Assembly: GCA_009841605.1 (NCBI GenBank)
Contig: VXLM01000139.1
Span: 4,257 to 68,256 of the forward strand
Origin: Dehalococcoidia bacterium
Lineage (GTDB): Bacteria > Chloroflexota > Dehalococcoidia > Lucifugimonadales > VXLM01
Length of the DNA: 64,000 nt
Reading direction: 5' to 3'
Shown here: positions 1,693 to 61,615 of the stretch, piece by piece
Position numbering within the stretch: position 1 is the first letter of the stretch
How the letters are laid out: the number at the start of each line of letters is the position of its first letter
Made by a program: the position numbers and the translations under genes
The notes under the pieces: generated by a model
Database searches by the model: none
What the model was told of the DNA's origin: nothing
Seen by the model: only the letters and a program-made list of their open reading frames with translations

Positions 1693-1734
1693 TTATCCCC
1701 TCTCCCGTCGTGGGAGAGGGCTAGGGTGAGGGTG
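1693..1734 (+). repeat. Family A hairpin repeat (CCCTCTCCC-gtcgt-GGGAGAGGG + CTAGGGTGAGGGTG tail)
   Basis: 9-bp stem and conserved tail, read directly. Lies between the convergent genes ending at 1594 and 1774. Confidence 0.9.
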
Positions 1735-1773
1735 ATTTGTAATAGCAAAACTATGTTTTGACTATGTACTGGT

Positions 1774-3015
1774 TCACAATTCCGTCTTGGGACGCTCCTT
1801 GGTCGGGTCGACGAACGGCACCCGCACCACCTCGGCATCCACAACGCCGTCCTTGGGCAGCTGGACCTTCACCCTGGTCCCCCGTCGCCAGTGAGATCGG
1901 GGCATGACTGCCAGCGCTATGTTCGACTCCAGGGTCGGCGACCAGAAGGCGCTGGTCACGTATCCCACGTCGTCGCCGGAGTCGCTGTCCTTGACCAGAT
2001 AGAAATCTTCGTTGTACCAGACAATCGACTCTCCTCCCACCTTCAGGCCGACCAGACGCTGCTGGACTCCCTCTTCCTTGATCCTGGCGAGGGCCTGCTT
2101 CCCTATGAAGTCATCCTTGCTCAGGTCCACTTGCCAGCCAAGCCTGACCTCATAAGGATTGTTTTCTATGTCCATGTCCTGGCCGTAGGACAGAATGCCG
2201 GCCTCCAGTCGGCGGATGTGGCTGGGGGCGATGACGCCCAGATTGAACTCCTCCCCCTGCTCCAGGATGTAAGGCCAGACATCGTCCGCATTGAGCATGG
2301 CGTCGTGCAGGTAGATCTCGAACCCGACTTCGGCGGAGAAGCCCGTGCGGGAAATCGTAACGTCATGGCCGTTCAGCGTGTCGTGAATTATGTGGTAGTA
2401 AGGGATGTCCCTCACGTGGGGACCAAACATCTTTTCCATCAAGGATGCCGACTTGGGTCCCTGTATCTGTACCGGGGACACGTCGATCTCGTGGATGTCC
2501 ACGTTGAACGCGCCGGATGAGTTGACTCCCTGTGCCCACAGGAGGACATCGGAGTCGGAGATGCTGAACCAGAACTCATCGTCGGCCACTCGTAGCAGGA
2601 CAGGGTCGTTGATGACGCCGCCATACTGATTGCAGAGGATGACGTACCGGGCCTGCATCGTCGGCAGCAGGGTGTGCACGTCGCGGGTGATCAGCTTGTT
2701 TACGAAGTCGGCTGCGTCGGGACCCTTGATTCTGATCTGGCGCTCGACCGCCACGTCCCACATGCTGACATGCTCGGTCAGGAACTTATACTCCGCCATC
2801 AGCCCTCCATCCTCGGGCTTGATGTACGATCGTGGGTGATACATGTGGTTGTACGTTGTATAAGCCCGGCACCCGGCTGCCTTGGACATGTGCCACCACG
2901 GTGACTTTCGGACGCGGGTGGAGATCAGCATTCGGGCGTCGCTATTGCCGCTTTGCCGGAGGTTAATGGGCAGTTTCCGCCGTTTGAGATTCTCGATTAC
3001 AAGAGTCTGAGTCAT
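1774..3015 (-). CDS. aminomethyltransferase-family (GcvT/DmdA-like) folate-binding protein
   Basis: About 413 aa with GcvT-fold blocks (MWDVAVERQIRIKGPDAADFV, GFSAEVGFEIY, RLEAGILSYGQD). GGAGG SD precedes ATG 3015; TTG 3018 is an alternative start. Confidence 0.8.
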   Translation of the reverse strand: MTQTLVIENLKRRKLPINLRQSGNSDARMLISTRVRKSPWWHMSKAAGCRAYTTYNHMYHPRSYIKPEDGGLMAEYKFLTEHVSMWDVAVERQIRIKGPDAADFVNKLITRDVHTLLPTMQARYVILCNQYGGVINDPVLLRVADDEFWFSISDSDVLLWAQGVNSSGAFNVDIHEIDVSPVQIQGPKSASLMEKMFGPHVRDIPYYHIIHDTLNGHDVTISRTGFSAEVGFEIYLHDAMLNADDVWPYILEQGEEFNLGVIAPSHIRRLEAGILSYGQDMDIENNPYEVRLGWQVDLSKDDFIGKQALARIKEEGVQQRLVGLKVGGESIVWYNEDFYLVKDSDSGDDVGYVTSAFWSPTLESNIALAVMPRSHWRRGTRVKVQLPKDGVVDAEVVRVPFVDPTKERPKTEL

Positions 3016-3500
3016 CAATGAACCTCCGTCTCCAAGTGTTGCAAGCAGTTTACGCTTATCCTCATTCGTGAGACAACGCCAATCCGGGTAGCGCCTTAGT
3101 GTGCGGAAATCGCTAACCCGGCATGCTTCTGCATACTTTGGAAGCCGTCAAAATTGGGGTAACGAGCGTGAGAAACTGTCTGAACATGGCCTGCAATCTT
3201 AGCTAGGTTCGATTCCCCTGCAATCTTGTGACGGCCTACAACTGGTCCAAATCTCGCCAGACCACACAATCCTCTGAGCTGCGAATCGCCAGAACCGTCT
3301 GGCCTCACGCCTCCTGACCCTTTTCTGGCGCAGATCGTTGTAAACATGAAGTGGTACAGACGTCGTGGGCAGGTCATCGGCGATCGGCGTCAACACCTCT
3401 GACAACGTGCTATAACGAACGCCCTGACAGGCCAACAGTTTACGGAAGAACGACTACACGAGAGCGAAAGCGACCAGACCGTCAAGGAGGTGATCGCCCC

Positions 3501-3632
3501 ATGAGAGACAGACGTGATCCTCAGGCAAAGATCGTGGGTGTTCCTGTACATGGAGGAGCGAGTCCCGAAGAACAACCCACTCTGAACCGTCAATGCAGTG
3601 ACCGTCGAAGCGCTGGAACAACTTTCCCCTGA
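3501..3632 (+). CDS. candidate small ORF (43 aa), unknown function
   Basis: Near-perfect SD AAGGAGGTG ends 8 nt before ATG 3501. No recognisable domain. Lies in an otherwise unassigned 740-bp spacer. Confidence 0.2.
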   Translation: MRDRRDPQAKIVGVPVHGGASPEEQPTLNRQCSDRRSAGTTFP

Positions 3633-3758
3633 ATTCGGCGGGACATGCGCGACCCTGTGGTTCAATCTCAGATTCACAAATGGCGAGGCTGTCGGCGTCT
3701 TGAAGATGCAGTCACAACAGTTACCCCACCTCTCGGTGGAGACAAAGGAGGTCCCAAT

Positions 3759-12011: not shown

Positions 12012-12039
12012 TTAGAGGGATTCCAAAAGTGGGATCCCG

Positions 12040-12225
12040 TTCACCCTGAGCAGCGTTACGCCCCGGCACACCCACCGTAGGGGCAATCCCTTGTGGTTGC
12101 CCGTCCTCTCGTCCCTCCATTCACCCTGAGCAGCCTTATACCCCGGCTAACCCTTCGTAGGGGCAATCCCTCGTGGTTGCCCGTCCTCGTCCCTCCATTC
12201 ACCCTGAGCCTGTCGAAGGCTGACC
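12040..12225 (+). repeat. tandem repeat, about 2.3 units of 78-80 bp (family E half-site plus family F hairpin per unit)
   Basis: Units 12040-12119 and 12120-12197, plus a partial unit from 12198. Each begins TTCACCCTGAGC and contains GTAGGGGCAATCCCTTGTGGTTGCCCG. Confidence 0.88.
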
Positions 12226-12231
12226 AACAAA

Positions 12232-12270
12232 CCCCCTCTCCCGTCGTGGGAGAGGGCTGGGGTGAGGGTG
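12232..12270 (+). repeat. Family A hairpin repeat
   Basis: ccctctcccgtcgtgggagagggctggggtgagggtg, with one substitution in the tail. Confidence 0.9.
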
Positions 12271-12435
12271 ATGCCTTCACGTAGGAGCGAGCAGTTACTT
12301 GAAAGCAGCGTTACGCCCCGCGCACGGGCCCAGCAAGTGGAAGTAACTGCCGCTAAAACGACTTCTTTCCCTACTCTGCGCTCTCTGTGTTCTCTGCGGT
12401 GAATCTTCTTCTTGTTTTGAGCAGTTACTTGAAAG

Positions 12436-12485
12436 CCTGTCGAAGGGTCGTTCATGGTTCGACAAGCTCACCACGAACGTTTCGG
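12436..12485 (-). repeat. Family E variant (CGTTCGTGGTGAGCTTGTCGAACCATGAACG), inverted copy
   Basis: The reverse complement matches the cores at 16893-16922 and 57378-57407. This is the only inverted copy of any family core seen in the window, other than the H element's own inverted second arm. Confidence 0.8.
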
Positions 12486-15442: not shown

Positions 15443-15555
15443 GTAACTATTCAGACTTCGTGGGAGTGTGCAAAGCGCACAGCCACCGTCATACCCGCGA
15501 AAGCGGGTATCCATAGGGGTGAGGGGTGTATGTCTCATTAACTCTGAACAGTTAC
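15443..15555 (+). mobile_element. Family C MITE-like element, uninterrupted (TIR GTAACTnTTCAGA... / ...TCTGAACAGTTAC, central ATACCCGC-GAAA-GCGGGTAT hairpin)
   Basis: 113 bp. Terminal inverted repeats and an 8-bp stem with a GAAA loop at 15491-15510, read directly. Confidence 0.8.
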
Positions 15556-16861: not shown

Positions 16862-16975
16862 TTAAGGGAGTGTTTGCACAGTCTGCGTAAATCGTTCGTG
16901 GTGAGCTTGTCGAACCATGAACCGCCATTCGACAGGCTCAGGACGGATGTGAGTACCTCCGCAAACACCCTTTAA
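16862..16975 (+). mobile_element. Family X element (TIR TTAAGGGAGTGTTTGC / GCAAACACCCTTTAA) enclosing a family E palindrome
   Basis: 114 bp. The inner inverted pair is GTGAGCTTGTCGAA / TTCGACAGGCTCAG. Confidence 0.75.
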
Positions 16976-17029: not shown

Positions 17030-17141
17030 GTAACTGTCCCGTCTTCGTGAGCGTGCTCGACACACATAACCACCGTCATACCCGCGAAAGCGGGTATCCA
17101 CACGGGACAGAGTGTTCAGCTCATCAACTCTGAACACTTAC
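17030..17141 (+). mobile_element. Family C MITE-like element, uninterrupted
   Basis: 112 bp. gtaactgtcccgtcttcgtgagcg...ccaccgtcatacccgcgaaagcgggtatcc...aactctgaacacttac. Confidence 0.8.
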
Positions 17142-20169: not shown

Positions 20170-20203
20170 CCGTTCACCCTGGAGCCTGTCGAAGGGTGAA
20201 CAA
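20170..20203 (+). repeat. Family E hairpin (GTTCACCCT-ggagcctgtcga-AGGGTGAAC)
   Basis: 9-bp inverted arms around the conserved GAGCCTGTCGAAGGG core. Confidence 0.85.
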
Positions 20204-22702: not shown

Positions 22703-22730
22703 CCGTTCACCCTGAGCCTGTCGAAGGGTC
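22703..22730 (+). repeat. Family E repeat
   Basis: ccgttcaccctgagcctgtcgaagggtcg, between the convergent Uma2 and ALDH genes. Confidence 0.85.
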
Positions 22731-26926: not shown

Positions 26927-26950
26927 GTAACTGTTCAGAGTCCGTGAGAA
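26927..26950 (+). repeat. solo left terminus of family C (gtaactgttcagagtccgtgagaa)
   Basis: Matches the left TIR of the family C elements. No right end or central hairpin follows. Confidence 0.6.
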
Positions 26951-27032: not shown

Positions 27033-27911
27033 GTGCAAATCGGAGTAGTATTTCCTCAACTCGAAATCGGCAACGACCCGGTCGCAATCCGCGACTATGC
27101 TCAAGCCGCAGAGTCGCTCGGCTACGACCACCTCCTCGTCTACGACCACGTCCTGGGAGCCAATCGCGAGACCCACGAGTGGCTCCGAGGCCCCTATAGA
27201 CACCCGGACGCCTTCCACGAACCCTTCGTGCTGTTCGGCTACCTTGCCGGACTGACGCAGAAGATCGAGCTCGTAACCGGCATCCTCATCCTTCCCCAGC
27301 GTCAGACTGCCCTCGTCGCCAAGCAGGCCGCCGAGGTCGATGTTCTTTCCAAAGGCCGCCTCCGTCTCGGCATTGGCATAGGCTGGAACAGCGTGGAGTA
27401 CGAGGCGCTGAACGAAGACTTCTCGAACAGGGGCCGCCGCTCCGAAGAGCAGATCGAAGTGATGAGAGCGCTGTGGACGAACGACCTCGTCACCTTCAAG
27501 GGCCGCTGGCACGCCATCACCGACGCGGGCATCAACCCCCTGCCCGTCCAGAGGCCCATTCCGATATGGTTCGGCGGTTACGACGACCGCGTCCTCCGCC
27601 GTATCGGCAGGATCGGCGACGGCTGGATCATTGCGGGCGGAGGCAACACGCCCACGCAGAAGACCACCTCGGCGGTCGAGCGAGTCAAGGGATATACGCA
27701 AGACGCGGGTCGCGACCCTTCGGCAATGGGGTTCGAAAAAGTCATCGGCTACGGAGATGCAACCCTCGGCAAAGGTATCGAGACCGTCCGCGAATGGGAA
27801 GACGCTGGCGTGACACACCTGTCCCTGAACACAATGAACTCCGGCCTTGCCACCCCTTCCGATCACATAACCGCAATCCGACGATTCAGAGAAGCCTTGG
27901 TAGAGGAGTAG
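27033..27911 (+). CDS. LLM-class (luciferase-like) F420-dependent oxidoreductase
   Basis: 292 aa with a GTG start. GVVFPQ...RDYAQAAESLGYDHLLVYDHV...GRLRLGIGIGW matches the Rv2161c-like LLM family pattern. Confidence 0.85.
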   Translation: MQIGVVFPQLEIGNDPVAIRDYAQAAESLGYDHLLVYDHVLGANRETHEWLRGPYRHPDAFHEPFVLFGYLAGLTQKIELVTGILILPQRQTALVAKQAAEVDVLSKGRLRLGIGIGWNSVEYEALNEDFSNRGRRSEEQIEVMRALWTNDLVTFKGRWHAITDAGINPLPVQRPIPIWFGGYDDRVLRRIGRIGDGWIIAGGGNTPTQKTTSAVERVKGYTQDAGRDPSAMGFEKVIGYGDATLGKGIETVREWEDAGVTHLSLNTMNSGLATPSDHITAIRRFREALVEE

Positions 27912-27913
27912 CC

Positions 27914-29005
27914 TTGTCCGAACTGCTGACAACTCCGCTTCACCGCACACACGTCTCGATGGGCGCGCGCATGGTCCCCTTTTCCGGCTGGGACATGCCC
28001 GTCCAGTACGCCACCATTCTGGAAGAGGTGGATGCCGTCCGCGAGCGCGTGGGTATCTTCGACGTATCTCACATGGGCCGGCTCTTCATCAGCGGTCCGG
28101 GCGCCGGGGCGTTCGTGAGCCGGGTATTCAGCACCGACGTAACCAAGCTCCGGCGGGGACGCGCCAAGTACGGCGTGACATGCAACGAAGAGGGCGGAAT
28201 CATCGACGACAACATCGTCTACCGCCTCGGTGAGGAACGCTACCTGTACATCCCAAACGCGGGTAACCGTGACGCCGTCTCGGCCTGGCTCCACAGGTGG
28301 GCCCCGACCGACGGCTCCGTCGATATCGATGACGCCGCCGACCGCCTCGCCATGATCGCCATTCAAGGCCCTGCGGCAAAGTCCACCTTCTCCAAAATAG
28401 CCGGGGCCGCTCTCGACAAGATCCGCCCCTTCCGAATCGCGCCCGTCGACATAGACGGTGAGTCCGTCCTGGTCGCGCGGACCGGATACACCGGAGAGGA
28501 CGGCTACGAGATCATGCCCTCGTCCGACTCAGTCGTCTCCGTCTGGAATGCGCTTATCAATGCCAAGGCTATACCGTGCGGCCTCGCCTCCCGCGACCTG
28601 CTCAGACTCGAAGCGGCCTTTCTCCTGCACGGAAACGACATGGACACCTCGATCAATCCCTACGAAGCGGGACTCGACCGCTTCGTCGACCCCGACCGTG
28701 ATGACTACATCCCCGGCGAGGCCCTCAGGCGAATCCGCGACGAGGGTACGAGCCGAAAGCTGGTTGGCTTCGAGATGGTCGGAAGAGGCATCGCCAGGCA
28801 CGGATACGACATCACCCACGGCGAAAACAAGATCGGCGAGGTGTCCAGCGGCAGCGTCTCCTTCACGCTTGACAAGAATATCGGCTTCGGCTATGTTCCT
28901 ACGGATTTTTCGGCGCTTGGAACGCAGCTTTGGATACAAATCAGGCGTCGCAGCGTCGAGGCAGTCGTCAGACCCCTGCCCTTCTATTCGCGGAGAGCTT
29001 CATGA
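27914..29005 (+). CDS. gcvT: glycine cleavage system T protein (aminomethyltransferase)
   Basis: TTG 27914, 2 nt after the LLM stop, gives N-terminus (M)SELLTTPLHRTHVSMGARMVPFSGWDMPVQY, collinear with known GcvT N-termini. The upstream part of ORF 27473 is a shadow of the LLM gene. Confidence 0.9.
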   Translation: MSELLTTPLHRTHVSMGARMVPFSGWDMPVQYATILEEVDAVRERVGIFDVSHMGRLFISGPGAGAFVSRVFSTDVTKLRRGRAKYGVTCNEEGGIIDDNIVYRLGEERYLYIPNAGNRDAVSAWLHRWAPTDGSVDIDDAADRLAMIAIQGPAAKSTFSKIAGAALDKIRPFRIAPVDIDGESVLVARTGYTGEDGYEIMPSSDSVVSVWNALINAKAIPCGLASRDLLRLEAAFLLHGNDMDTSINPYEAGLDRFVDPDRDDYIPGEALRRIRDEGTSRKLVGFEMVGRGIARHGYDITHGENKIGEVSSGSVSFTLDKNIGFGYVPTDFSALGTQLWIQIRRRSVEAVVRPLPFYSRRAS

Positions 29006-32278: not shown

Positions 32279-32291
32279 CGCCGTTTCAGAC

Positions 32292-32333
32292 TTATCCCCT
32301 CTCCCGTTTGCGGGAGAGGGCTAGGGTGAGGGT
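32292..32333 (+). repeat. Family A hairpin repeat (10-bp stem, loop tttg)
   Basis: ttatcccctctcccgtttgcgggagagggctagggtgagggt. Its tail overlaps the last codons and the stop of fabL on the opposite strand. Confidence 0.9.
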
Positions 32334-33091
32334 TGAGCCCCCAGCGTCGCCCCGCCGTCGACCAGCAATATCTGCCCTCGGATCATCTCGGCCTCCGGCG
32401 AACACAGGAACCCCACGGCGTTGGCGATATCCTCGACCGTGACCATCCTGCCCGTCACGGTCTTCTCCCCGTCCGCTAGCATCTGGTCCCTGTCCCTGAA
32501 GGCGCTGAGCGCGTCCGTATCGACGTAGCCACCCGACACGGCGTTCACCGAGATATTCTTCGATGCCAACTCGACGGCTAGATACCTTGTGATCGCCTCT
32601 AAAGCCGCCTTGGACGTCCCGACCGCGAAGTAGTTGGGCAGAACGTTGCGAGAACCCTCGCTCGTGATGTTGACGATGTGCCCGCCGTCGGCCATCAGTC
32701 GCGATGCCTCGATGGAGCACAGCCACGCCGCCTTGGCGTTGATGTCCATCGTCCAGTTCCAGTGCTTCTCGCCAAGCTCCGAGGCAGCTACGTTCACCCC
32801 AGACGCCGCGTTGTTGATCAGGACGTCGAGCCTGCCGTATTCCGTCTCCACCGTCTCGAACAGGCCGCGTATCTTCTCCGCGTCTCCCAGATGCGCCCGC
32901 GCCTTTACGCACCGCACGCCCAACGCCTCAACTTCTTGCTGCGCCTCATTCGCCGAGGTGTGGCTGCGGAGGTAGTTGAAGGCAATGTCAGCGCCCCGCC
33001 GTGCGAAGTGGAGCGCGATGGCCTTCCCAATTCCGCGCGACCCACCCGTGACCAGGACGACCTTCCCCGCAAACTCCTTGCCAGCACCCAT
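32321..33091 (-). CDS. fabL: SDR-family enoyl-ACP reductase, FabL-like
   Basis: Collinear with my recollection of B. subtilis FabL: TGGSRGIGKA, NNAASGV, HWNWTMDINAKA, SKAALEAITRYLAVEL, VNAVSGGYVDTDAL, MIRGQILLVDGG. Lies next to fabG and plsX. Confidence 0.72.
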   Translation of the reverse strand: MGAGKEFAGKVVLVTGGSRGIGKAIALHFARRGADIAFNYLRSHTSANEAQQEVEALGVRCVKARAHLGDAEKIRGLFETVETEYGRLDVLINNAASGVNVAASELGEKHWNWTMDINAKAAWLCSIEASRLMADGGHIVNITSEGSRNVLPNYFAVGTSKAALEAITRYLAVELASKNISVNAVSGGYVDTDALSAFRDRDQMLADGEKTVTGRMVTVEDIANAVGFLCSPEAEMIRGQILLVDGGATLGAQPSP

Positions 33092-35901: not shown

Positions 35902-35927
35902 TGTAGGGGCAACCCTTGTGGTTGCCC
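35902..35927 (+). repeat. Family F hairpin (GTAGGGGCAACC-cttgt-GGTTGCCCG)
   Basis: 8-bp stem. The same unit occurs at 12077, 12157 and 56592. Confidence 0.85.
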
Positions 35928-39290: not shown

Positions 39291-39324
39291 GTCCGTTCGA
39301 CCTGAGCCTGTCGAAGGGCAATTC
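39291..39324 (+). repeat. Family E repeat
   Basis: gtccgttcgacctgagcctgtcgaagggcaattc. Confidence 0.85.
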
Positions 39325-39390: not shown

Positions 39391-39419
39391 TTGACGACCC
39401 CACGCATTAGTCATATCAT
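39391..39419 (+). promoter_or_regulatory. candidate promoter TTGACG-N17-TATCAT of the phd-vapC operon, with direct repeats
   Basis: Hexamers at 39391-39396 and 39414-39419. CATTAG occurs twice, within the spacer and overlapping the -10 element, and GCTAATCTG occurs at 39358 and 39422. Confidence 0.4.
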
Positions 39420-39448
39420 TAGCTAATCTGATCCCAAAGGAGCGGGCA

Positions 39449-39682
39449 ATGGTAACGGTGAACGTCCACGAAGCGAAGACCCACCTGTCACGTCTGCTGG
39501 CGCAGGTCGAGGCGGGAGAGGAGGTCATCATCGCCCGAAACGGCAAGCCCGTCGCCCAGCTCGTGCGCTGCAAAAAGCGCGGCAAGCGGCAATTCGGCTC
39601 GATGAAGGGCCTGATAAGCATCGACGACCGCTTTTTTGAGCCGCTGTCGGAAGAAGAGTTGGCCGCCTGGGAGGGCGGCTGA
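39449..39682 (+). CDS. type II antitoxin, Phd/YefM family
   Basis: 77 aa. VNVHEAKTHLSRLLAQVEAGEEVIIARNGKPVAQLV is the classical Phd/YefM N-terminal fold pattern. Sits 3 nt upstream of a PIN gene. Confidence 0.85.
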   Translation: MVTVNVHEAKTHLSRLLAQVEAGEEVIIARNGKPVAQLVRCKKRGKRQFGSMKGLISIDDRFFEPLSEEELAAWEGG

Positions 39683-39685
39683 TCG

Positions 39686-40072
39686 TTGCGGCTGCTACTA
39701 GACACCCACGCATTCATTTGGTGGTTTGCCGGAAGCGAGCAGTTGCCCCAATCCGCCCGGCGGTTGATAGAAGCTGACGACAACGACGTGCTGATAAGCG
39801 CGGCGTCGGCATGGGAGATCGCAACCAAGCACCGAAAGGGCAAACTCCCGGAAGCGGATCCCCTGGTCCGCGACATGACCGGCGCCATAGCCGACCAGGA
39901 CTTCGAGGAGTTGTCCGTCACCGTGGACGACGCCGCGCGCGCCGGAGCGCTTCCCGGACCTCTCCGCGATCCCTTCGACCGAATGCTCATAGCGCAGGCG
40001 CTGTCGCGCAACCTCGTTCTCATTTCGAACGAGTCCCTCTTCGACCGCTACGACGTCCGTCGCTTGTGGTGA
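39686..40072 (+). CDS. vapC: type II toxin, PIN-domain ribonuclease VapC
   Basis: 128 aa with a TTG start. LLLDTHAFIWW, SAASAWEIA and RDPFDRMLIAQA supply the acidic PIN residues. Confidence 0.85.
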   Translation: MRLLLDTHAFIWWFAGSEQLPQSARRLIEADDNDVLISAASAWEIATKHRKGKLPEADPLVRDMTGAIADQDFEELSVTVDDAARAGALPGPLRDPFDRMLIAQALSRNLVLISNESLFDRYDVRRLW

Positions 40073-40080: not shown

Positions 40081-40191
40081 CACCCTCACCCCTCCGGCAA
40101 GTAGGGGCGATTCGCGAATCGCCCCTTATCCCCTCTCCCGTCGTGGGAGAGGGCTAGAGCCTGCCCCGTACTTGATACGGGGGTGAGGGTG
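40081..40191 (+). repeat. composite: family G 24-nt perfect palindrome, plus family A hairpin interrupted by a family I hairpin, bounded by CACCCTCACCCC / GGGGTGAGGGTG
   Basis: AGGGGCGATTCGCGAATCGCCCCT at 40103-40126. The A hairpin starts at 40126 and its tail is split by CCCCGTA-cttga-TACGGGG (40164-40182). The outer 12-nt inverted arms are at 40081-40092 and 40180-40191. Confidence 0.85.
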
Positions 40192-43655: not shown

Positions 43656-44645
43656 CTATTTTGATTCCGGCAGTCGGATGGCGTACAGGGATCCGTCCGT
43701 CGACCCCACGTACACGACTCCGTCGGCCACCGTGGGTGACGAAGAAACGGGGCCCTCCGTCGCGTATTGCCAGAGCAGTTCCCCCGTCTCTGCGGATGCC
43801 GCGTAGAGATTGTGGTCGAACGATCCGAAGTACACCACGCCCTCGGCTATGGCCGGAGACGACTCGACCCGGCCGCCGGTAGGGAGTCGCCATCGAAGCG
43901 ACCCAACTTCCGCGTCCAACGCATAGAGATGACCGTCCCTCGATCCCACGTACACGACTCCTTCCGCTACCGCCGGTGATGAGACCACCCAGTCATTGGT
44001 GCGATATCGCCATCTCTCCACGCCGGTGTTTGCGTCAACGGCGTAAACATGACCGTCCCAAGAGCCGAAGTACACGTACCCGTTCCCGACAGCGGGTGAG
44101 GAAAACACAACGTTGTCCGCCTTCGCGCGCCACATGATGGTCCCCGTCCCGGCGTCCAGTGCGTACAGGTGCCCATCATTCGATCCGACGTACACCACGC
44201 CGTCGACAACGCGAGGTGATGACATAATCCAGTCTTCCGTGCCCGAGCGCCAGACGATTTCGCCCGTCGCGGCCTCCAGCGCGTAGACGTGATGATCGGT
44301 GGAGCCGACGTACACTATCCCATTGACGACCGCCGGGGACGAAAATACGCCCTCCCCAAGCCGGCTGCGCCAGACCACTTCGCCCGACGATGCGGCAAGT
44401 GCATACACATACCCGTTCCACGAGCCGACGTACACAACTCCCTCGGTCACACGCGGCGATGAATAGACCTTGTCGCCTGAGTCGAACGACCAGCGCTGCT
44501 CTCCGAGCTCGGCGTCCAGCGCCAGCAGACTGCCGTCCTCCGAGCCGACGAATACCACCCCATCAGCTACGGTAGGGCTGGACGATACGGCGTCTCCGGT
44601 CTTGTGCCGCCGGATGAGATGTGCTTCTTTCAACGTCTGTTGCAT
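43656..44645 (-). CDS. eight-bladed PQQ-like beta-propeller repeat protein without signal peptide
   Basis: 329 aa made of 8 units of about 40 aa, SSP.V.DGVVYVGS.DG.LYALDA.TGE..W. Starts 5 nt after the upstream FtsX gene stop. N-terminus MQQTLKEAHLIRRHKTGD is not hydrophobic. Confidence 0.85.
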   Translation of the reverse strand: MQQTLKEAHLIRRHKTGDAVSSSPTVADGVVFVGSEDGSLLALDAELGEQRWSFDSGDKVYSSPRVTEGVVYVGSWNGYVYALAASSGEVVWRSRLGEGVFSSPAVVNGIVYVGSTDHHVYALEAATGEIVWRSGTEDWIMSSPRVVDGVVYVGSNDGHLYALDAGTGTIMWRAKADNVVFSSPAVGNGYVYFGSWDGHVYAVDANTGVERWRYRTNDWVVSSPAVAEGVVYVGSRDGHLYALDAEVGSLRWRLPTGGRVESSPAIAEGVVYFGSFDHNLYAASAETGELLWQYATEGPVSSSPTVADGVVYVGSTDGSLYAIRLPESK

Positions 44646-49046: not shown

Positions 49047-49177
49047 CTAAGGAACTATCTCAAAATACGCTTCGACACGTTTTCTCCACACGCGGGCTCA
49101 GAGAACAATACGTTCGCCCTGAGCTTGTCGAAGGGCAATTCTTGGCCAACAAACATAGTTTTAAGATAGTTTCCAAG
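49047..49177 (+). mobile_element. Family Y element (degenerate TIR CTAAGGAACTATCTC / GATAGTTTCC) with a family E core
   Basis: About 131 bp, collinear with 53830-53956. Confidence 0.7.
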
Positions 49178-49259: not shown

Positions 49260-49523
49260 GTAGCTGCTCAGAGACCGTGAGCGCGCTCGACACACACAGC
49301 CACCGTCATACCCGCGAAGAGCTTCCCCCGTACCCCGATACGGGAGAGACCTTTGCATAACCCCTGATGGGAGCCTGGAAATCCCTTCCCCCTTGATGGG
49401 GGAAGGTTAGGATGAGGGTGAAATTCGCGCCACTAAGGCAATACCTGGAGGTTATGCAAATGTCACCGAAAGCCCGGAATCCGCAGGGGCGAGGCATTCC
49501 CCTCGCCAACTCTGAACACTTAC
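49260..49523 (+). mobile_element. Family C element with nested insertions (family I hairpin plus 112-bp family Z unit carrying an A-variant hairpin)
   Basis: Outer ends gtagctgctcagagaccgtgagcg / aactctgaacacttac. The C hairpin is split after catacccgcgaag. Z unit at 49350-49461. Confidence 0.8.
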
Positions 49524-49574: not shown

Positions 49575-50582
49575 ATGGGACCTGTAGCAAATCTCCATGC
49601 CGAAGTTCTCCTCGATGGATCCTTGACCGCAGAGGAGCAATACCGCGCCCTGACTTCGGGCGTCGCGGTGCTGGACCGTTCCGACGCTGGGCGACTAGCC
49701 CTCACGGGCGATGACGCGCTCGACCTCCTGAACCGCCTTTCCACCAACGAGCTCGCGACCCTCGAAGTCGGCGCAGGTGCTGCCACCGTCCTGACGACGA
49801 ACAAGGGACGTATCGTTGACTTGCTTCACGTCCACCGGAGCGAAGACCGGTTGGTGGTATTCACCTCCCCGGAGAATCAGCAGCGCGTGGCCGAGTGGAT
49901 TGACTTCTATACCTTTGTTGAGGATGTGGAGATCGAAGACGTAACTAGCGAGACGGCTATGCTCTCGCTCACCGGCCTCGATTCGACGAAATTCTTGGAC
50001 GAGCTCACGGACGGCCAGGCATCGTTGTTAGCGACCTATGAACGATTGAGCACACAGATTTCCGATGTCACTGCCGAGGTGTACCGCAGCGACTTCCTGG
50101 GGCCGCCTTCATTCGACATCGTCTTCGACGCCGAACACAGGGATAACCTCTTCGGAGTACTCACAGACAATGGCGCGACACCCGCTGGCCCGGACGTGAT
50201 CGAGGCCCTTCGAGTCCAGCGCGGCATCCCCGCGTTCGGCAAGGAGTTGACCGAGGACTACAACCCGCATGAGGCCAACCTCGTCCACCACGTGAGCTTC
50301 TCGAAGGGATGCTACATCGGGCAAGAGGTAATCGCCCGGCTCCAGACCTACAAGAAAGTCAGTAAGTACCTCGTCGGCCTTCGGTGGGACGGCGACGGCC
50401 CTGCACCGGGCTCCTTCCTGACGCACGACGGCAAGCGGATGGGCATAGTCACGTCCGTGGCCCGCCTGCCCCATACCGGAGCAAACGTCGGTCTTGCCTA
50501 CGTCCGCAAGCAGTTCGTCGACGACGGCACGACGGTTGTCGACGAGACCGGAATCGAGATCACGATCAAGGTCCTCATCTAG
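49575..50582 (+). CDS. ygfZ: YgfZ/GcvT-like folate-binding protein
   Basis: 335 aa. GcvT-fold N-terminal half and the family signature KGCYIGQE. Confidence 0.8.
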   Translation: MGPVANLHAEVLLDGSLTAEEQYRALTSGVAVLDRSDAGRLALTGDDALDLLNRLSTNELATLEVGAGAATVLTTNKGRIVDLLHVHRSEDRLVVFTSPENQQRVAEWIDFYTFVEDVEIEDVTSETAMLSLTGLDSTKFLDELTDGQASLLATYERLSTQISDVTAEVYRSDFLGPPSFDIVFDAEHRDNLFGVLTDNGATPAGPDVIEALRVQRGIPAFGKELTEDYNPHEANLVHHVSFSKGCYIGQEVIARLQTYKKVSKYLVGLRWDGDGPAPGSFLTHDGKRMGIVTSVARLPHTGANVGLAYVRKQFVDDGTTVVDETGIEITIKVLI

Positions 50583-51505: not shown

Positions 51506-51649
51506 CTAGTGTCCTGTGTCAGAGATTCAACGAACAAAACAGCGGGTGATTTATCCTCTCTCCCTTGATGGGAGAGGGCTAGGGTGAGGGTGACTCCCCG
51601 GAACGCACCTATCTGATTTATACAACGAACTTCAAATGCAGGACACTAG
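51506..51649 (+). mobile_element. Family W element (11-bp TIR CTAGTGTCCTG / CAGGACACTAG) carrying a family A hairpin
   Basis: TIRs at 51506-51516 and 51639-51649. The A copy at 51551-51592 has loop ttgat. Confidence 0.7.
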
Positions 51650-51699
51650 GGGGTTCAGATTTCTAGGAGTGTACAGTGACGAGACATTGACCTCGTAGA

Positions 51700-51718
51700 G
51701 GCGGGTTTGAAACCCGCC
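51700..51718 (-). terminator. candidate stem-loop terminator downstream of the ADP-ribosylglycohydrolase gene
   Basis: GGCGGGTTT-g-AAACCCGCC near-perfect palindrome about 60 nt after the stop. There is no U-tract, so intrinsic termination is uncertain. Confidence 0.3.
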
Positions 51719-51780
51719 CTGTCGTGCCTACAACGAGACGCGCCGCCGCTGATTTCGGTCTTCTTTACCTCTCCTAGCCT

Positions 51781-52824: not shown

Positions 52825-52852
52825 CGTAGGGGCGATTCGCGAATCGCCCCTA
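52825..52852. repeat. Family G 28-nt perfect palindrome GTAGGGGCGATTCGCGAATCGCCCCTAC
   Basis: Read directly. The same palindrome occurs at 40101-40126 and, degenerate, at 60759-60786. Confidence 0.9.
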
Positions 52853-52860
52853 CTTCCATA

Positions 52861-53086
52861 GTATCTGTTCAGACTTCGTGAGAGCCCTCAGCATACACAG
52901 CCACCGTCATACCACCTTTGCACAATCCCTGATGGGAGCCTGGAAATCCCTTCCCCCTTGATGGGGGAAGGTTAGGATGGGGGTGAAATTCGCGACGCTA
53001 AGGCATAACTGGAGGTTACGCAAAGGTCTCCGAAAGCGGGTATCCACAGGGGGAGGGTGTTCCTCTCATCAACTCTGAACAGTTAC
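52861..53086 (+). mobile_element. Family C element with a nested 112-bp family Z unit (four structural layers)
   Basis: Outer TIRs. The C hairpin is split into 52901-52913 and 53032-53045. Z unit at 52915-53026 with ends cctttgcacaa / ttacgcaaagg. Inner hairpin ccttccccc-ttgat-gggggaagg. Confidence 0.85.
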
Positions 53087-53829: not shown

Positions 53830-53956
53830 TGGAAGCTGTCTCAAAACACACTCCGACGAATCTTTCCCACACACACGCTCAGAAAATCACGTTCGCCCTG
53901 AGCCTGTCGAAGGGCAATCCTCCGCCAGCGCACATAAAATGGAGATAGTTCCTTAG
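53830..53956 (+). mobile_element. Family Y element, second copy
   Basis: ggaagctgtctcaaaaca...cgttcgccctgagcctgtcgaagggcaat...ggagatagttccttagg, collinear with 49047-49177. Confidence 0.7.
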
Positions 53957-54097: not shown

Positions 54098-54169
54098 CTT
54101 CTCCCTTCTTTCTCCTTCCCTCTTTCTTCCTTTCCTCCCCCCTCTTTCTTCTTTCCTCTTTCTTCCCCC
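54098..54169 (+). repeat. 72-nt purine-free (C/T only) tract
   Basis: No A or G between 54098 and 54169. Ends 44 nt before the ATG of the DSD1-like gene. Related in sequence to 58204-58290. Confidence 0.9.
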
Positions 54170-56591: not shown

Positions 56592-56617
56592 GTAGGGGCA
56601 ACCCTTGTGGTTGCCCG
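56592..56617 (+). repeat. Family F hairpin
   Basis: gtaggggcaacccttgtggttgcccg. Confidence 0.85.
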
Positions 56618-56697
56618 TTCGCGGCGGCAATGCACTTTCATCCCCTTCTGTGTCCTGTGCAGGTCCGGAGTGGTGTCCGCTAATGGTGGCCCATGAA

Positions 56698-56737
56698 TAT
56701 CCCCTCTCCCGTCATGGGAGAGGGCTAGGGTGAGGGT
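56698..56737 (+). repeat. Family A hairpin repeat (loop gtcat)
   Basis: tatcccctctcccgtcatgggagagggctagggtgagggt. Confidence 0.9.
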
Positions 56738-56799
56738 ATCTTGAGGAAGCTGCCAAAATCATATGGAACCGGTACGAGATATTGTTGGTGGACAAGGCT

Positions 56800-57351: not shown

Positions 57352-57375
57352 GTTGGTGTCGAAAACTCGCCGAAA

Positions 57376-57440
57376 CCGTTCGTGGTGAGCTTGTCGAACC
57401 ATGAACGGCGCACCGACCTTTCGAAAGGCTCAGCGTCTCC
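57376..57440 (+). repeat. Family E variant / X-core repeat
   Basis: ccgttcgtggtgagcttgtcgaaccatgaacgg followed by cctttcgaaaggctcag, collinear with the interior of 16862-16975. Confidence 0.8.
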
Positions 57441-58118: not shown

Positions 58119-58203
58119 GAACCTGACAACCACCTCGTTATATGTAATTCTCCAAAAGGATAAAACGTCCCGCATTTACCGTAAAGCCAACCTCTTTGCT
58201 TGT

Positions 58204-58290
58204 CCTCTCCCTTCTTTCCTCTTTCTACTTTCTCCGCCCTTCTTTCTTCTTCCCTCTTTCTCCCTTCTTCCCCAATCCTCTCCCATCCTG
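58204..58290 (+). repeat. 87-nt polypyrimidine tract (5 purines)
   Basis: Shares ctcccttctttc, ccctctttct and cttcttcccc blocks with 54098-54169. Ends 46 nt before ATG 58336 of infC. Confidence 0.85.
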
Positions 58291-59625: not shown

Positions 59626-59799
59626 GTCATTCCGAGCGCAGCGAGAAATCTAAAGTCCTTCACCGCAAGACCGGATAGTCAGTGCCGCGCTTCTATCGTG
59701 ACGAAGAGTGAAAACCGCGGAAGAATTTTCCATATCAGCCTTACGTTGTGACAGACACTTTTAGATTCTTCGACTCCGCTGCGCTTCGCTCAGAATGAC
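59626..59799. repeat. Family H inverted-repeat pair (GTCATTCCGAGCGCAGCGAG..AATCTAAAG) flanking about 100 bp
   Basis: Left arm 59626-59655. Right arm 59758-59799 is its imperfect reverse complement with a short internal insertion. Confidence 0.75.
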
Positions 59800-59822: not shown

Positions 59823-60107
59823 ATGGAGCCCCTGACAGACTTGCGCATCCTCGCCTCGCAGCGCTTCTGGACAACTGTGAAGTTGCTGGAAGTTCCCCAC
59901 CTGAAAGCGCGGGAGATGGTTGTGGACGTACACGATCCCGCACGCGGAGACTACTGGATAATCGGATGCCCGATAAAGGATGAGGGTAACGACGTTGAGG
60001 TTCGACCGCCGCCCCTGCTCGACTAGGATTCGGAAGAGGTGCTTACCGATCTGCTGGGAATGAGCCGCGAGGAGATCGAAGCGTTGCCGGACGCAGGAGT
60101 AGTCTGA
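59823..60107 (+). pseudogene. remnant of a family III (CaiB/BaiF) CoA-transferase gene
   Basis: Only about 94 codons. PLTDLRIL resembles the family N-terminus and HLKAREMVVDVHDP...IGCPIK...RPPPLLD*DSEEVLTDLLGMSREEIEALPDAGVV resembles the C-terminus. In-frame TAG at 60024-60026. The roughly 300-aa core is absent. Confidence 0.55.
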
Positions 60108-60571: not shown

Positions 60572-60686
60572 CTGGGGCTGGGATGCGTCATCATCCCCTC
60601 ATTCTGGCGCCTCCCTAAACCTTACACCTGACCCCTTTGCCCTCGATAACGGGCAATTCCCTTTTGACTTTAGGCCACCCCCACGC

Positions 60687-60735
60687 CGTCATTCCGGCGA
60701 AGGAACGTCACCCCGCACCACGATACGGGGCGGAA
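60687..60735 (+). repeat. C-like hairpin (gtcattccggcgaagg...cggaaatcc) interrupted by a family I hairpin
   Basis: The intact version is gtcattcccgcgaaggcgggaatcc at 61904-61928. Here ccccgcaccacgatacgggg is inserted right after the loop. Confidence 0.7.
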
Positions 60736-60758
60736 ATCCATGCCCCGGCCAACCTCCC

Positions 60759-60786
60759 GTAGGTGTGATTCACGAATCGCCCCCTA
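60759..60786. repeat. Family G palindrome, degenerate copy
   Basis: gtaggtgtgattcacgaatcgcccctac. Its right arm contains the stop codon of the SCO1 gene (opposite strand). Confidence 0.75.
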
Positions 60787-61512
60787 CCCATCCTCCCCCA
60801 ACAACGCCCGCACATCCCCCACCACGTCCTCAGGCTCGATCGGCAGCGTGTGGAGCACCCGCACCCTCCCCTGCCTATCAATCAGATACACCGGTGCCTG
60901 GTGCGCCACCGTATACCGTGACGCGATGTCGCGACTCAACGCATCGACCCCTCGCACCCTGTCGACCTTCCACTCCTCCGGCACGTCTGCGACTCGTCCC
61001 TCCTCGTCCACTGCCGCGACCACGTAGTACGCCTCCCAGACCGGGCTGAGGTCCTCCTCGCTTCCAACGAGATACCTCCAGTTCTCGGCCATCCCCCACG
61101 CCTCCGAGTACTCCAGCGCCCGCTCGACCGTGTCCCGCTCCGGGTCCACGCTCACGACCACGATGGATACCTCCGCCGCATCATCCCCCAGCCTCTCGGA
61201 CATCGCCTTCACATGGTGCGCCACGATGGGACAGATATCGGGACAGTACGTGTACAGAAAAGTGAGGACGACGACCCTGTCCTCATTCAACTGACCGAGC
61301 GAGACCGGTCGCCCGAACTGGTCCGTCAGCCGGAAGTCCTGCGTCTCTCGTCGGTCCTCGATGACCGTTCCCGAAAACTCCGCGTCCCCACCGCCCGTCG
61401 AGCATCCAGCGAGAATAAGGGGAAAAAGAATGACCGCCGCCTGCCATGTCGCGAGGATTACCAGACCCGTTCGTGCTGAGCCTGTCGAAGCGCGATGCGT
61501 CAAATCACTCAA
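60784..61512 (-). CDS. SCO1/SenC-family copper chaperone (thioredoxin fold), lipoprotein-type leader
   Basis: CxxxC motif in VVLTFLYTYCPDICP plus a downstream His. Leader ...ILFPLILAGCS. Next to cytochrome oxidase genes. Confidence 0.88.
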   Translation of the reverse strand: MSDLTHRASTGSARTGLVILATWQAAVILFPLILAGCSTGGGDAEFSGTVIEDRRETQDFRLTDQFGRPVSLGQLNEDRVVVLTFLYTYCPDICPIVAHHVKAMSERLGDDAAEVSIVVVSVDPERDTVERALEYSEAWGMAENWRYLVGSEEDLSPVWEAYYVVAAVDEEGRVADVPEEWKVDRVRGVDALSRDIASRYTVAHQAPVYLIDRQGRVRVLHTLPIEPEDVVGDVRALLGEDG

Positions 61513-61574
61513 AGACTTGAAATGCCGACTAGCACTGTTCCCGTTTGGATGTAACAGCTAAGCCGAGAGCCGAT

Positions 61575-61615
61575 TTATCCCCTCTCCCGTCGTGGGAGAG
61601 GGCTAGGGTGAGGGT
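61575..61615 (+). repeat. Family A hairpin repeat
   Basis: ttatcccctctcccgtcgtgggagagggctagggtgagggt. Confidence 0.9.

Follow-up and report, generated by a model that had tools for sequence, protein, structure and literature searches.

Co-orientation of the repeats in the window

The window, the 64-kb stretch of DNA analysed here, raises the question of why several repeat families should all point in one direction among genes that lie on both strands. The original prediction placed every copy of families A, C, E and F on the + strand and estimated the chance of this at 0.004 for the nine copies of family A. When the window was compared with itself by blastn, about 40 non-coding repeat pairs were observed, and the only inverted ones were pairs of the E2 hairpin (orientation 2:1 overall) and the palindromes at 40101-40126 and 52826-52853. 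The shared direction is therefore real.

For family A, a 23-mer search recovered six copies on the + strand and a repeat finder and fuzzy scan recovered the rest, giving the expected seven copies and two variants, all on +. The asymmetric internal core of family C, CACAGCCACCGTCATACC, was found on + at 15478, 17065, 49295 and 52896, consistent with the four elements predicted, and a fifth, partial left end was also on +. The four family F hairpins (12077, 12157, 35903 and 56592) were likewise all on +. The claim of nine + strand cores in family E held for seven of them (Table 1). With up to two mismatches to the core CTGAGCCTGTCGAAGG allowed, two further matches lay on the - strand at 16926 and 57418, where they form the distal arms of E2 two-armed hairpins; these had been overlooked, and the E2 element at 12431-12485 is thus not the sole site of an inverted core, as had been stated.

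Some of these copies do not count separately. The F hairpins at 12077 and 12157 are not independent because both sit in an 80-bp tandem duplication, and the C and A-variant orientations at 49260 and 52861 are not independent events because the two composites are paralogous. With independent copies counted as A 7, E 7, C 5 and F 3, there were 18 of 18 within-family agreements, for which the chance is ~4e-6, far beyond the earlier estimate. In other assemblies of the same population, negative GC skew and co-orientation extended past the left end of the window by 4 kb and past its right end by ~10 kb. We considered whether local history or chance could produce the pattern with no chromosome-level cause, through regional duplications, block-copied composites and nested insertion into oriented targets. 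The tandem units and paralogous composites are of this kind, the small hairpins K and K2 inherit the orientation of their host hairpins, and E abuts A. However, the 18 agreements persist without the non-independent copies, the copies are separated by unrelated genes, and the pattern recurs in 43 other genomes, where it tracks GC skew and flips with it. This explanation is already largely refuted, and we regard it as very improbable.

Table 1. Positions, strands and characteristics of the repeat features in the window
Feature	Position	Strand	Characteristics
BoxC	1693..1735	+	CCCTCTCCC-GTCGT-GGGAGAGGG-CTA-GGGTGAGGG; inside a 105-nt element 88% identical to L020; convergent neighbours, GMC oxidoreductase (+) and GCV_T (-)
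Two 80-bp tandem units	12037..12188	+	each with the 5' half of E and an F hairpin (12077-12102; 12157-12182)
E core	12196..12220	+	CGTTCNCCCTGAGCCTGTCGAAGGG type; core match at 12204
BoxC	12229..12271	+	directly 3' of E core; convergent genes either side
E2 two-armed hairpin	12431..12485	-	opposite orientation; sole truly discordant family member
Family C	15443..15555	+	113 nt; inverted ends GTAACTNTTCAGA/TCTGAACAGTTAC; central CGTC hairpin CGTCATACCCGC-GAAA-GCGGGTA
E2 two-armed hairpin	16889..16945	+	E-variant arm +, E arm - (16926-16941); fold -12.8 kcal/mol
Family C	17030..17141	+	C element
E core	20172..20197	+	core match at 20180
E core	22704..22728	+	core match at 22712
C left end, solitary, partial	26927..26949	+	
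BoxC	32290..32334	+	6-nt loop; in 42-nt gap of convergent genes
Family F	35903..35927	+	GTAG, 8-bp stem GGGCAACC/GGTTGCCC, 5-nt loop CTTGT
E core	39294..39318	+	core match at 39302
Palindromic GTAG-REP	40101..40126	.	GTAGGGGCGATTCGCGAATCGCCCC(TAC); no orientation; second copy 52826-52853
BoxC	40126..40191	+	interrupted after CTAG by 24-nt hairpin K
K, 24-nt mobile hairpin	40158..40181	+	AGCCTGCCCCGTACTTGATACGGG; sits in BoxC loop 2
E core	49111..49135	+	core match at 49119
Family C composite	49260..49523	+	central hairpin broken by K-like hairpin and X with BoxC variant
BoxC variant	49379..49420	+	CCCTTCCCCC...GGGGGAAGG-TTA-GGATGAGGG; nested in X (49349-49463), within C element
BoxC	51551..51593	+	middle of 144-nt element (51506-51649) with inverted ends CTAGTGTCCTG...CAGGACACTAG; two - strand genes flank
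Other GTAG-tagged hairpin	51695..51721	+	GTAGAGGCGGG-TTT-GAAACCCGCC; fits REP definition
Family C composite	52861..53086	+	paralogue of 49260-49523, 125 nt at 92%
BoxC variant, second	52944..52985	+	same kind of nested composite; X = 52914-53027
E core	53890..53914	+	core match at 53898
Family F	56592..56616	+	REP-like hairpin
BoxC	56697..56739	+	two + strand genes flank; 56698-56778 93% identical to L039
E2 two-armed hairpin	57373..57433	+	oriented like E2 at 16889
H element	59626..59799	+	long inverted arms (GTCATTCCGAGCGCAGCGAG...), ~85-nt spacer; downstream of rplT
CGTC-tagged hairpin	60686..60739	+	CCGTCATTCCGGCGAAGG...CGGAAATCC; 27-nt K2 hairpin (60704-60730) in loop
E core	61468..61492	+	core match at 61476; overlaps SCO1 ORF 5' end as called
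BoxC	61575..61617	+	empty site of the K insertion that strain L243 has at 61607
CGTC-tagged hairpin	61902..61928	+	CCGTCATTCCCGC-GAAG-GCGGGAATCC; empty site of 27-nt K2, filled in L243 at 61920

Identity of the repeat families

Judged by its sequence, family A is the BoxC/PIT/TM-ECO motif, a putative intrastrand triplex. Six intact copies fit the consensus of Holder et al. 2015 (PMC4666352), 5'-CCCTCNCCC N3-6 GGGNGAGGG N3 GGGNGAGGG-3', with no more than one substitution per arm. The seventh (40126-40191) fits after removal of its 24-nt insert, and the two variants (matches at 49383 and 52948) keep the Y-R-R architecture with different arms. Identity to the E. coli BoxC, in 5409 of 5426 E. coli genomes, was 88-92% over 40 nt. 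Every copy was intergenic, between Pfam-supported genes, and the density in the window was about one per 7 kb. The predicted fold was a 9-bp hairpin only (-10.5 kcal/mol), triplex formation being putative here; triplex folding of PIT/BoxC has been addressed by CD or NMR (PMC4666352). The cluster at 40081-40191 as a whole gave a fold of -37 kcal/mol (z = -7.4).

Family F is REP-like under the published definition (PMC6006769), which calls for a GTAG or GTGG tag placed 0-2 nt 5' of a hairpin whose basal stem is fully paired over 7-20 nt and whose loop spans 2-5 nt. At 35903 and 56592 the gap is 0, the stem 8 and the loop 5; the other two copies, at 12077 and 12157, contain a single bulged base. 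The F stem is perfectly Watson-Crick, such that either strand folds equally and the asymmetry is limited to the tag and the loop. There were four copies in the 64 kb and nine in 61 related 8-kb loci. GTAG repeats are known from Chloroflexi (Nunvar 2010; Ton-Hoang 2012, PMC3333891; Di Nocera 2013, PMC3733652; Quentin 2018, PMC6006769). The cores of C and H are CGTC-tagged hairpins, a class of palindromic repeat in which a short stem-loop has CGTC at its 5' foot (Di Nocera 2013, PMC3733652). Hairpins that fit this description were found at 15487, 17074 and 61903, all on + and none on -.

Recent mobility of the 24- to 27-nt hairpins

The hairpins K and K2, the latter starting with AACGTCA followed by a hairpin, were polymorphic between strains. 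In strain L243 (94-95% identity), loop 2 of a BoxC carries a 24-nt insert and the loop of a CGTC hairpin carries one of 27 nt, each at a position identical to that of the filled paralogue within the window. Comparison of empty and filled sites revealed no target duplication and a junction ambiguity of at most 1 nt. The insertion targets were CTAG^GG, TCAG^GG and GAAGG^CGG in hairpin loops, in three or four events only, and similar inserts were observed in other genomes (L040 and L097). Because the strain polymorphism shows insertion into the loops of other repeats without target duplication, the 24-27-nt hairpins are recently mobile, and they entered these loops in a fixed orientation.

The original prediction had also pointed to HUH and REP systems, and this lead stood in part. 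The fit of F to the REP definition and the duplication-free insertion into hairpin loops favour it, as do RAYT-like Y1 ORFs containing F in 2 of 120 F-bearing metagenome loci (L173 and L198). F lies in frame within these RAYT-like reading frames, and with the insert removed they matched NF047646 with E values of 5e-18 and 5e-20, scoring 65-72 bits where the curated cut-off is 80. Against the lead, neither the window nor the 61 Chloroflexota loci described below yielded a Y1/HUH gene. A plain IS200 TnpA was present in another metagenome locus, L236.

Orientation in other Chloroflexota genomes

The generality of the pattern was assessed in 61 independent loci of 43 Chloroflexota genomes; these loci have no genes in common with the window. 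Elements more than 300 nt from the seed BoxC had the same orientation as the seed in 45 cases and the opposite in 4 (p = 8e-10). By family, co-orientation with the seed was 17:1 for E, 11:1 for the A variant, 22:4 for A and 9:0 for F, and GTAGGGGC in general was co-oriented with BoxC 36:10. The G-rich arm of BoxC lay on the C-rich strand in 44 of the 60 loci with a single orientation and on the other strand in 16 (p = 4e-4); the ratio was 29:5 where |skew| exceeded 0.04 and 30:13 when counted per genome. The same link to skew was 9:0 for F and 13:0 for the A variant. In four complete chromosomes with several loci each (OY764155, OZ220720, OY762634 and OZ241888), skew sign and orientation changed together. 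The proposal that orientation tracks chromosome-scale strand asymmetry was thus borne out by the link to skew and by these joint flips. About a quarter of the Chloroflexota loci were discordant. Metagenome loci of mixed taxa seeded with F exhibited a weak skew link (42:26, p = 0.07), and in E. coli and other Proteobacteria no such orientation bias was observed.

The direction of neighbouring genes, by comparison, had no such relation to orientation. In the window, the Pfam-checked neighbours of the nine A copies occur in all arrangements: four pairs are convergent, one is divergent, three are tandem on - and one is tandem on +, in keeping with the claim that neighbouring genes lie on both strands. 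In the Chloroflexota loci the flanking contexts were ++ 16, -- 15, +- 18 and -+ 8, the element-strand coding fraction was 0.50, and the skew of the element strand was negative whether the genes were co-directional (39:13) or anti-directional (39:12), so the further expectation that orientation does not track the adjacent gene strand was also upheld. Transcription could in principle set the orientation if the repeats were RNA elements, such as 3' stabilisers or terminators, that follow the upstream gene. REPs do lie mostly downstream of ORFs (Di Nocera et al., PMC3733652), and the four convergent A copies would fit. However, relative to the genes on either side, three A copies run antisense and one runs sense, ++ and -- flanks are balanced in the loci, coding is evenly divided between the strands, and an Rfam search gave no matches. 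We regard this explanation as scarcely probable at all.

Selection on structure was considered as another source of the link to skew. Copies would enter both ways, and those whose harmful fold forms on the single-stranded lagging-strand template would stall forks and be purged. The G-arm of BoxC, GGG-AGA-GGG-CTA-GGG-TGA-GGG, is both a triplex former and a G4 motif, PIT elements stop polymerase in vitro (PMC4666352), and, as this model predicts, the G-arm is found on the inferred leading-strand template, the C-rich strand. Nevertheless, the F, E and CGTC hairpins are equally or more polarised, including F with its strand-symmetric stem. Moreover, BoxC is unbiased in E. coli, with copies at 13+/10- (solo copies 8:5, as we counted them from Table 1 of Holder et al., PMC4666352), and in Proteobacterial loci, where no bias of BoxC with skew was found (10:16). 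Such selection is in our view unlikely.

Alternatively, the repeats might be a polar signal of chromosome architecture like KOPS/SRS or Chi, with selection holding their orientation relative to ori and dif. In the window, the density of BoxC and its almost complete polarity are much like those of KOPS, and GGGNGAGGG is similar to the KOPS motif GGGNAGGG. On the other hand, the same G-rich 8-9-mers outside BoxC had no such polarity (GGGTGAGGG 14:10, GGGAGAGGG 15:24), the G-rich motif lies on the C-rich strand, the reverse of every known KOPS, SRS or Chi motif, each element contains one BoxC arm in both orientations, and the polarity is common to unrelated families. We consider a role of this kind highly improbable.

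Replication polarity and a possible mechanism

The explanation that we judge best, and on balance probable, is that strand-specific processing of single-stranded DNA, coupled to replication, sets the polarity of the repeats. The window would be part of one replication arm of a sponge-associated, Dehalococcoidia-like Chloroflexota chromosome, whose intergenic spaces appear to have been colonised by BoxC, GTAG-REP-like hairpins, CGTC hairpins (the cores of C and H, and K2), the E hairpin and nested composites. In Chloroflexota these repeats are mostly single copies rather than inverted pairs and are polarised relative to the replication-associated strand asymmetry, with the 5'-GTAG hairpin, the 5'-CGTC hairpin, the E core and the G-rich arm of BoxC all placed on the C-rich strand. 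Replication direction was inferred from GC and AT skew under the rule that the leading strand has G>C (PMC8941118), which would make the C-rich strand the lagging strand and hence the leading-strand template. Every family thus has one direction within an arm, irrespective of the neighbouring genes. Against this explanation, the infC-rpmI-rplT operon lies on +, so that a lagging + strand would place it head-on to replication.

The polarity would be set at the fork by a sequence-specific enzyme that acts on single-stranded DNA, with a RAYT-like HUH Y1 nuclease or an equivalent as the candidate. We favour an enzyme over structure because F folds equally on both strands yet is fully polarised. For BoxC, E and C, we know of no mobilising enzyme. 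The bias might arise either through strand-biased insertion or through strand-biased excision that removes a copy when its active strand falls on the exposed lagging-strand template. In the IS608 model, the active (top) strand is on the lagging-strand template, which is G-rich. With the G>C leading rule, and with the tagged strand taken as the active one, the tagged strands here lie on the C-rich strand, opposite to the IS608 expectation, and strand-biased excision would explain this opposite polarity.

A broader reading, which is possible but doubtful, is that in Chloroflexota, and apparently Planctomycetota, a replication-coupled, strand-specific single-stranded DNA system moves or prunes BoxC, the GTAG- and CGTC-REPs and the 24-27-nt loop-invading hairpins. 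As the copies occur singly, the polarity of the genome would directly reveal how this system works. If true, this would be the first natural evidence of BoxC as a mobile element, and it would tie REP spread at the fork to a single template strand, possibly via strand-biased excision. That repeat direction follows a replication-type asymmetry and not genes offers a new clue to the spread of these widespread, unexplained repeats.

Comparison with known systems

BoxC is known from Bachellier (1990s), Hoyne and Maher (2000) and Holder et al. (2015; PMC4666352), the last of whom described it as without association with mobile elements. In E. coli neither orientation is favoured, and between a third and a half of the copies occur as inverted A+B pairs, whereas in the window and other Chloroflexota the copies are mostly single, have CTA as loop 2, are polarised with skew, often lie inside larger inverted-end elements and are targets of the 24-nt mobile hairpin.

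In tiny size and nesting, the window repeats are like the SDRs of heterocystous cyanobacteria, although the sequences and the phylum differ. Elhai et al. reportedly described the SDRs in 2008 as hairpin-like mobile elements of ~21-27 nt that nest in each other or in other repeats. We know of no report of replication polarity for them.

The C core and the hairpin at 61902 resemble CGTC repeats in their CGTC tag followed by A, a 7-8-bp stem and a 4-nt loop, and in being intergenic. Likeness to REP/RAYT systems lies in the intergenic F element, with its GTAG, perfect 8-bp stem and 5-nt loop, and in the occurrence of F-containing RAYT-like genes in metagenomes; there the REP is inside the RAYT reading frame, whereas in known RAYT systems REPs typically flank the gene. 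Most Proteobacterial REPs form inverted doublets (BIME/REPIN; 500 of 584 in K-12), which mask strand polarity, while polarised single copies dominate in the window.

The IS200/IS605 elements (IS608, ISDra2; Ton-Hoang 2010; Gomez 2014, PMC3971601) provide a precedent for an orientation bias tied to replication direction. The window elements further resemble them in hairpin dependence, and K and K2 in inserting beside a short specific sequence without target duplication. Unlike them, the window elements are 24-150 nt long, non-autonomous and inserted into hairpin loops, and their tagged strand lies on the C-rich side, in contrast to the bias of IS200 towards the leading (G-rich) strand.

Co-orientation of the repeats within the window

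The original prediction was that the repeat families are co-oriented over 60 kb regardless of gene strand. For family A, assigned below to BoxC, a 23-mer search of the window gave six matches with at most one mismatch, all on the + strand and compared with none in shuffled sequence. Together with the copies added by a repeat finder and a fuzzy scan (Table), this bears out the predicted seven copies and two variants, all on the + strand. The asymmetric core of family C, an element with a CGTC-tagged hairpin, was likewise + in four of four elements, as were the hairpins of family F (GTAG-tagged, REP-like) in four of four copies. For family E, a small hairpin core expected to be + in all nine copies, seven + cores were borne out, and two further cores, each matching with one or two mismatches, were found on the - strand as second arms of E2, a hairpin combining an E-variant arm with an inverted E arm. 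The element at 12436-12485 is therefore not the sole inverted copy, as had been thought. The E2 element at 12431-12485 is inverted relative to the other two, making E2 (2:1) the sole discordant family in the window.

An unbiased self-comparison of the window by blastn returned approximately 40 non-coding repeat pairs; apart from two true palindromes and the pairs of E2, all were direct. A family-blind scan of the window found intergenic GTAG- or CGTC-tagged perfect hairpins on the + strand and no asymmetric ones on the - strand. Copies in the 80-bp tandem (12037-12188) and in two paralogous composites (49260 and 52861) are not independent events; once these were discounted, within-family comparisons agreed in 18 of 18 cases, with a chance probability of about 4e-6. 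The Pfam-checked genes around the nine A copies were convergent in four cases, divergent in one, tandem on the - strand in three and tandem on the + strand in one; with every flanking arrangement present, orientation was independent of gene strand, as predicted. Other assemblies from the same sponge-metagenome population, which end at repeats (29-kb scaffolds), lengthened the region by 4 kb on the left and about 10 kb on the right; the further copies of H, E and A found there had the same orientation, and these flanks the same sign of GC skew, as the window.

Table. Positions of repeat copies and genes (window coordinates unless a locus is named)
Feature	Position	Strand	Detail
Family A, extra copy	40126-40191	+	split by 24 nt; repeat finder, fuzzy scan
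Family A, variants	49379, 52944	+	repeat finder, fuzzy scan
Family C, solitary left end	26927	+	fifth copy
E2 two-armed hairpins	16889-16945, 57373-57433		- strand cores at 16926 and 57418 are the second arms
Further GTAG hairpins	51695, 40101, 52826
RAYT-like ORF	L173:195-792	+	HUH and Y..NP motifs
RAYT-like ORF	L198:62-739	-	HUH and Y..NP motifs
Metabolic genes	1774-3018, 27473-29005, 29448-32278, 49575-50582		three GCV_T-family aminomethyltransferase genes, gcvPA/PB, two oligopeptide ABC systems, caa3 oxidase cluster

Identity and nesting of the repeats

Judged by its fit to the published consensus, CCCTCNCCC-N3-6-GGGNGAGGG-N3-GGGNGAGGG (PMC4666352), family A is the BoxC/PIT/TM-ECO element. 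Searched against 5426 complete E. coli genomes, a 43-nt BoxC copy from the window had matches of 88-92% identity in 5409, at a median of 15 places per genome, and the exact BoxC 22-mer GGGAGAGGGCTAGGGTGAGGGT was found in Dehalococcoidia, cyanobacteria, Pirellulales, Pseudomonas, Archangium and others. Both this 22-mer (genome stretches L003-L121) and the exact F 25-mer (metagenome loci L122-L241) span many phyla, on contigs of 37-70% GC; such unchanged non-coding 22- to 25-mers imply either strong constraint or frequent horizontal spread. In family F the GTAG tag abuts a perfect 8-bp stem with a 5-nt loop; with this tag, stem and short loop, F is a REP by the operational definition (PMC6006769). 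Di Nocera et al. (PMC3733652) described a class of CGTC-tagged hairpins, to which belong the one at 61902, the one at the centre of C and the H arms. The elements themselves are known kinds. Rfam at gathering thresholds gave no match in the window, and neither tRNA nor transposase genes were found there.

The repeats are nested. Elements of 105-150 nt with inverted ends hold BoxC centrally (for example, 51506-51649), and pieces of them were 88-93% identical to loci in other genomes, while their flanking genes gave no matches. In the C copies at 49260 and 52861 a further element is inserted, and this itself bears a BoxC variant. Pairing of CACCCTCACCCC on the left (40081-40092) with the third BoxC arm on the right (40180-40191) closes the cluster at 40081-40191 into one fold of 111 nt (-37 kcal/mol, z = -7.4), inside which lie a palindromic REP, the BoxC hairpin and the 24-nt hairpin K. 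A further repeat motif, CTCTGTGTYCTCTGCG(G/A)TGAATC, at 12340-12420 is shared with locus L025, and two strain assemblies differ by a related 21-nt piece (L243:9873), which one has and the other lacks.

Repeat orientation and GC skew in Chloroflexota

Scanning a genome collection with the BoxC 22-mer yielded 119 sequences, each at most 8 kb long, of which 61 came from 43 Chloroflexota genomes. Relative to the seed BoxC, the other repeats in these Chloroflexota loci were strongly co-oriented (E, 17:1; BoxC variant, 11:1; further BoxC, 22:4; F, 9:0), as were the elements more than 300 nt from the seed (45:4, p = 8e-10). The few mixed-orientation loci were mostly BoxC inverted pairs. Orthology between the loci and the window would inflate these statistics; only the repeats themselves matched.

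The G-rich arm of BoxC lay on the strand of negative GC skew in 44 of 60 Chloroflexota loci (p = 4e-4), in 29 of the 34 with |skew| > 0.04, and in a ratio of 30:13 when counted per genome. The + strand of the window, with negative skew in 15 of 16 bins, follows the same rule. Transcription-linked orientation was rejected as an explanation, since the coding share on the element strand was 0.50, the flanking contexts were ++ 16, -- 15, +- 18 and -+ 8, and the element-strand skew was negative both in co-directional genes (39:13, mean -0.045) and in anti-directional genes (39:12, mean -0.064). The skew is thus not a by-product of gene direction. On four complete chromosomes with several loci, orientation and skew sign changed together: in OY764155.1 the element was - at 72 kb and + at 512, 624, 1000 and 1392 kb, and OZ220720.1, OY762634.1 and OZ241888.1 behaved similarly. 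As far as 8-kb samples and a skew proxy reach, neither roughly equal orientations within a replichore nor tracking of the gene strand was observed. As a guide to leading and lagging strands, tRNA direction gave two tRNAs only in the 60 loci, one each way. The F-seeded metagenome loci, intended as an independent test, showed a weak association with skew (42:26), the F 25-mer being cross-phylum.

BoxC polarity is specific to some lineages. In Planctomycetota the G-arm was on the C-rich strand in a ratio of 10:0 (L017-L019, L027, L063, L065, L072, L074, L075 and L108; a small sample). The Proteobacteria, also a small sample, gave 10:16 overall and 3:10 where the skew was clear, tending the opposite way, and no polarity was seen in the cyanobacterial and Myxococcota loci. 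For E. coli K-12, 13 + and 10 - BoxC copies have been reported with "no bias" (Holder et al., PMC4666352); from the positions in their Table 1, taken relative to oriC and ter, 8 of the 13 solo copies were leading and 5 lagging. Proteobacterial REPs mostly occur as inverted doublets (500 of 584 in K-12; PMC3333891), an arrangement that masks any strand preference.

Mobility of the 24- and 27-nt hairpins

L243, a scaffold of a sister sample with 94-95% identity to the window, is set apart from it by two clean insertions. The first, 24-nt AGCCTGCCCCGTACTTGATACGGG (L243:12365-12388), occupies loop 2 of the BoxC at 61575-61617, following CTAG at window position 61607; the second, 27-nt AACGTCACCCCGTACTCCGATACGGGG (L243:12025-12051), occupies the loop of the CGTC hairpin at 61902-61928, following GAAGG at 61920. 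Filled paralogues are present in the window at 40158-40181 (24 nt) and 60704-60730 (27 nt), and other genomes have these inserts too: in L040 the site is loop 1 of a BoxC, in L097 the loop of a CGTC hairpin. With at most one ambiguous base at the junctions, the insertions arose without target duplication. Presence or absence between strains, combined with the occurrence of these inserts elsewhere, shows that the 24- to 27-nt hairpins are mobile, target hairpin loops and enter in a fixed orientation, which is how a process working on folded single-stranded DNA is expected to behave. Although nesting spreads co-orientation between families within one cluster, it can account neither for the agreement of clusters that lie kilobases from one another nor for the link to skew.

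Association of family F with RAYT-like genes

The metagenome scan with the F 25-mer gave 120 loci (37-70% GC), two of which (L173 and L198) contain RAYT-like ORFs carrying F in frame between the HUH and catalytic Tyr (Y..NP) motifs, where it encodes the peptide VGATLVVA. In the L173 ORF, an inverted REP of another type comes after F. The two ORFs matched NCBIfam NF047646 (REP-associated tyrosine transposase) with E values of 3e-14 and 3e-16, improving to 5e-18 and 5e-20 over the full domain when the insert was removed (65-72 bits, below the 80-bit equivalog cut-off). More REP-like repeats were seen just upstream and downstream of both genes. Somewhere in nature, therefore, F is linked to RAYT-type enzymes. 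The HUH-type insertion originally proposed thus gains from F being a REP and from these metagenomic ORFs, but no Y1 gene was found in the window or the Chloroflexota loci, where a six-frame regex for the HUH-Y1 signature gave false positives only.

Other features of the window

Pure pyrimidine (CT) tracts on the + strand at 54098-54169 (72 nt) and 58203-58273 (24 + 37 nt), partly alike, lie just upstream of + strand genes (a D-serine dehydratase-like gene and infC) and could form H-DNA. A - strand gene at 43656-44645 (329 residues) contains eight in-register 120-nt (40-residue) repeats at 43693-44582; it had no Pfam match and is situated between two very large FtsX-like membrane proteins of 1139 and 1419 aa. 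The small ORF and PIN-domain gene (39686-40072, E = 6e-17) at 39395-40072 are likely a VapBC-type toxin-antitoxin pair and adjoin the densest repeat cluster, 40081-40191. Gene content around the metabolic regions (Table) is ordinary metabolism without mobile-element genes.

Discussion

Few non-coding repeats of bacteria are as widespread as REPs and BoxC, the latter described since the 1990s. We know of no function or mobilising enzyme for BoxC. A lineage with single copies, strongly polarised with a replication-type asymmetry, makes the manner in which BoxC and REPs spread a testable question: polarity can be mapped on complete chromosomes, young and old insertions can be compared, and the empty and filled sites of strains provide defined substrates for biochemistry. 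In the literature searched, we found no description of replication-type polarity of single BoxC, GTAG or CGTC hairpins, of phylum restriction of hairpin or BoxC polarity, or of loop-invading 24- to 27-nt hairpins in Chloroflexota. A literal search with six repeat sequences returned nothing relevant, and keyword searches for replichore-polarised REP or BoxC returned only work on IS200/IS605 and the symmetric REP arrays of SBW25, in which tandem arrays are mirrored about the origin (Bertels and Rainey).

The best-supported reading is that the window would lie in one replication arm and that orientation would be set at the fork by a sequence-specific, strand-specific process on single-stranded DNA. 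The perfect stem of F folds equally on both strands, its only asymmetric parts being the GTAG tag and the loop, yet F is fully polarised, which favours an enzyme over simple structural selection. A KOPS-like oligomer signal was also considered. GTAGGGGC (36:10) and GTCGAAGGG (20:7) were co-oriented with BoxC; the signal was rejected because the G-rich 8-9-mers of BoxC were not polarised outside BoxC (14:10 and 15:24).

By the G>C rule for assigning the replication strand (PMC8941118), with GC skew as the proxy for direction, the tagged strands would be on the lagging strand. The + strand location of infC-rpmI-rplT is a small point against this replication direction. IS200/IS605 elements also have a replication-linked orientation bias, but in the direction opposite to that of the tagged strands here (PMC3971601). 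Possibly the skew rule, or the choice of the "active" strand, fails in these genomes; the enzyme may instead work on the leading-strand template; or copies with the active strand exposed on the lagging-strand template may be preferentially excised, leaving survivors of the opposite orientation.
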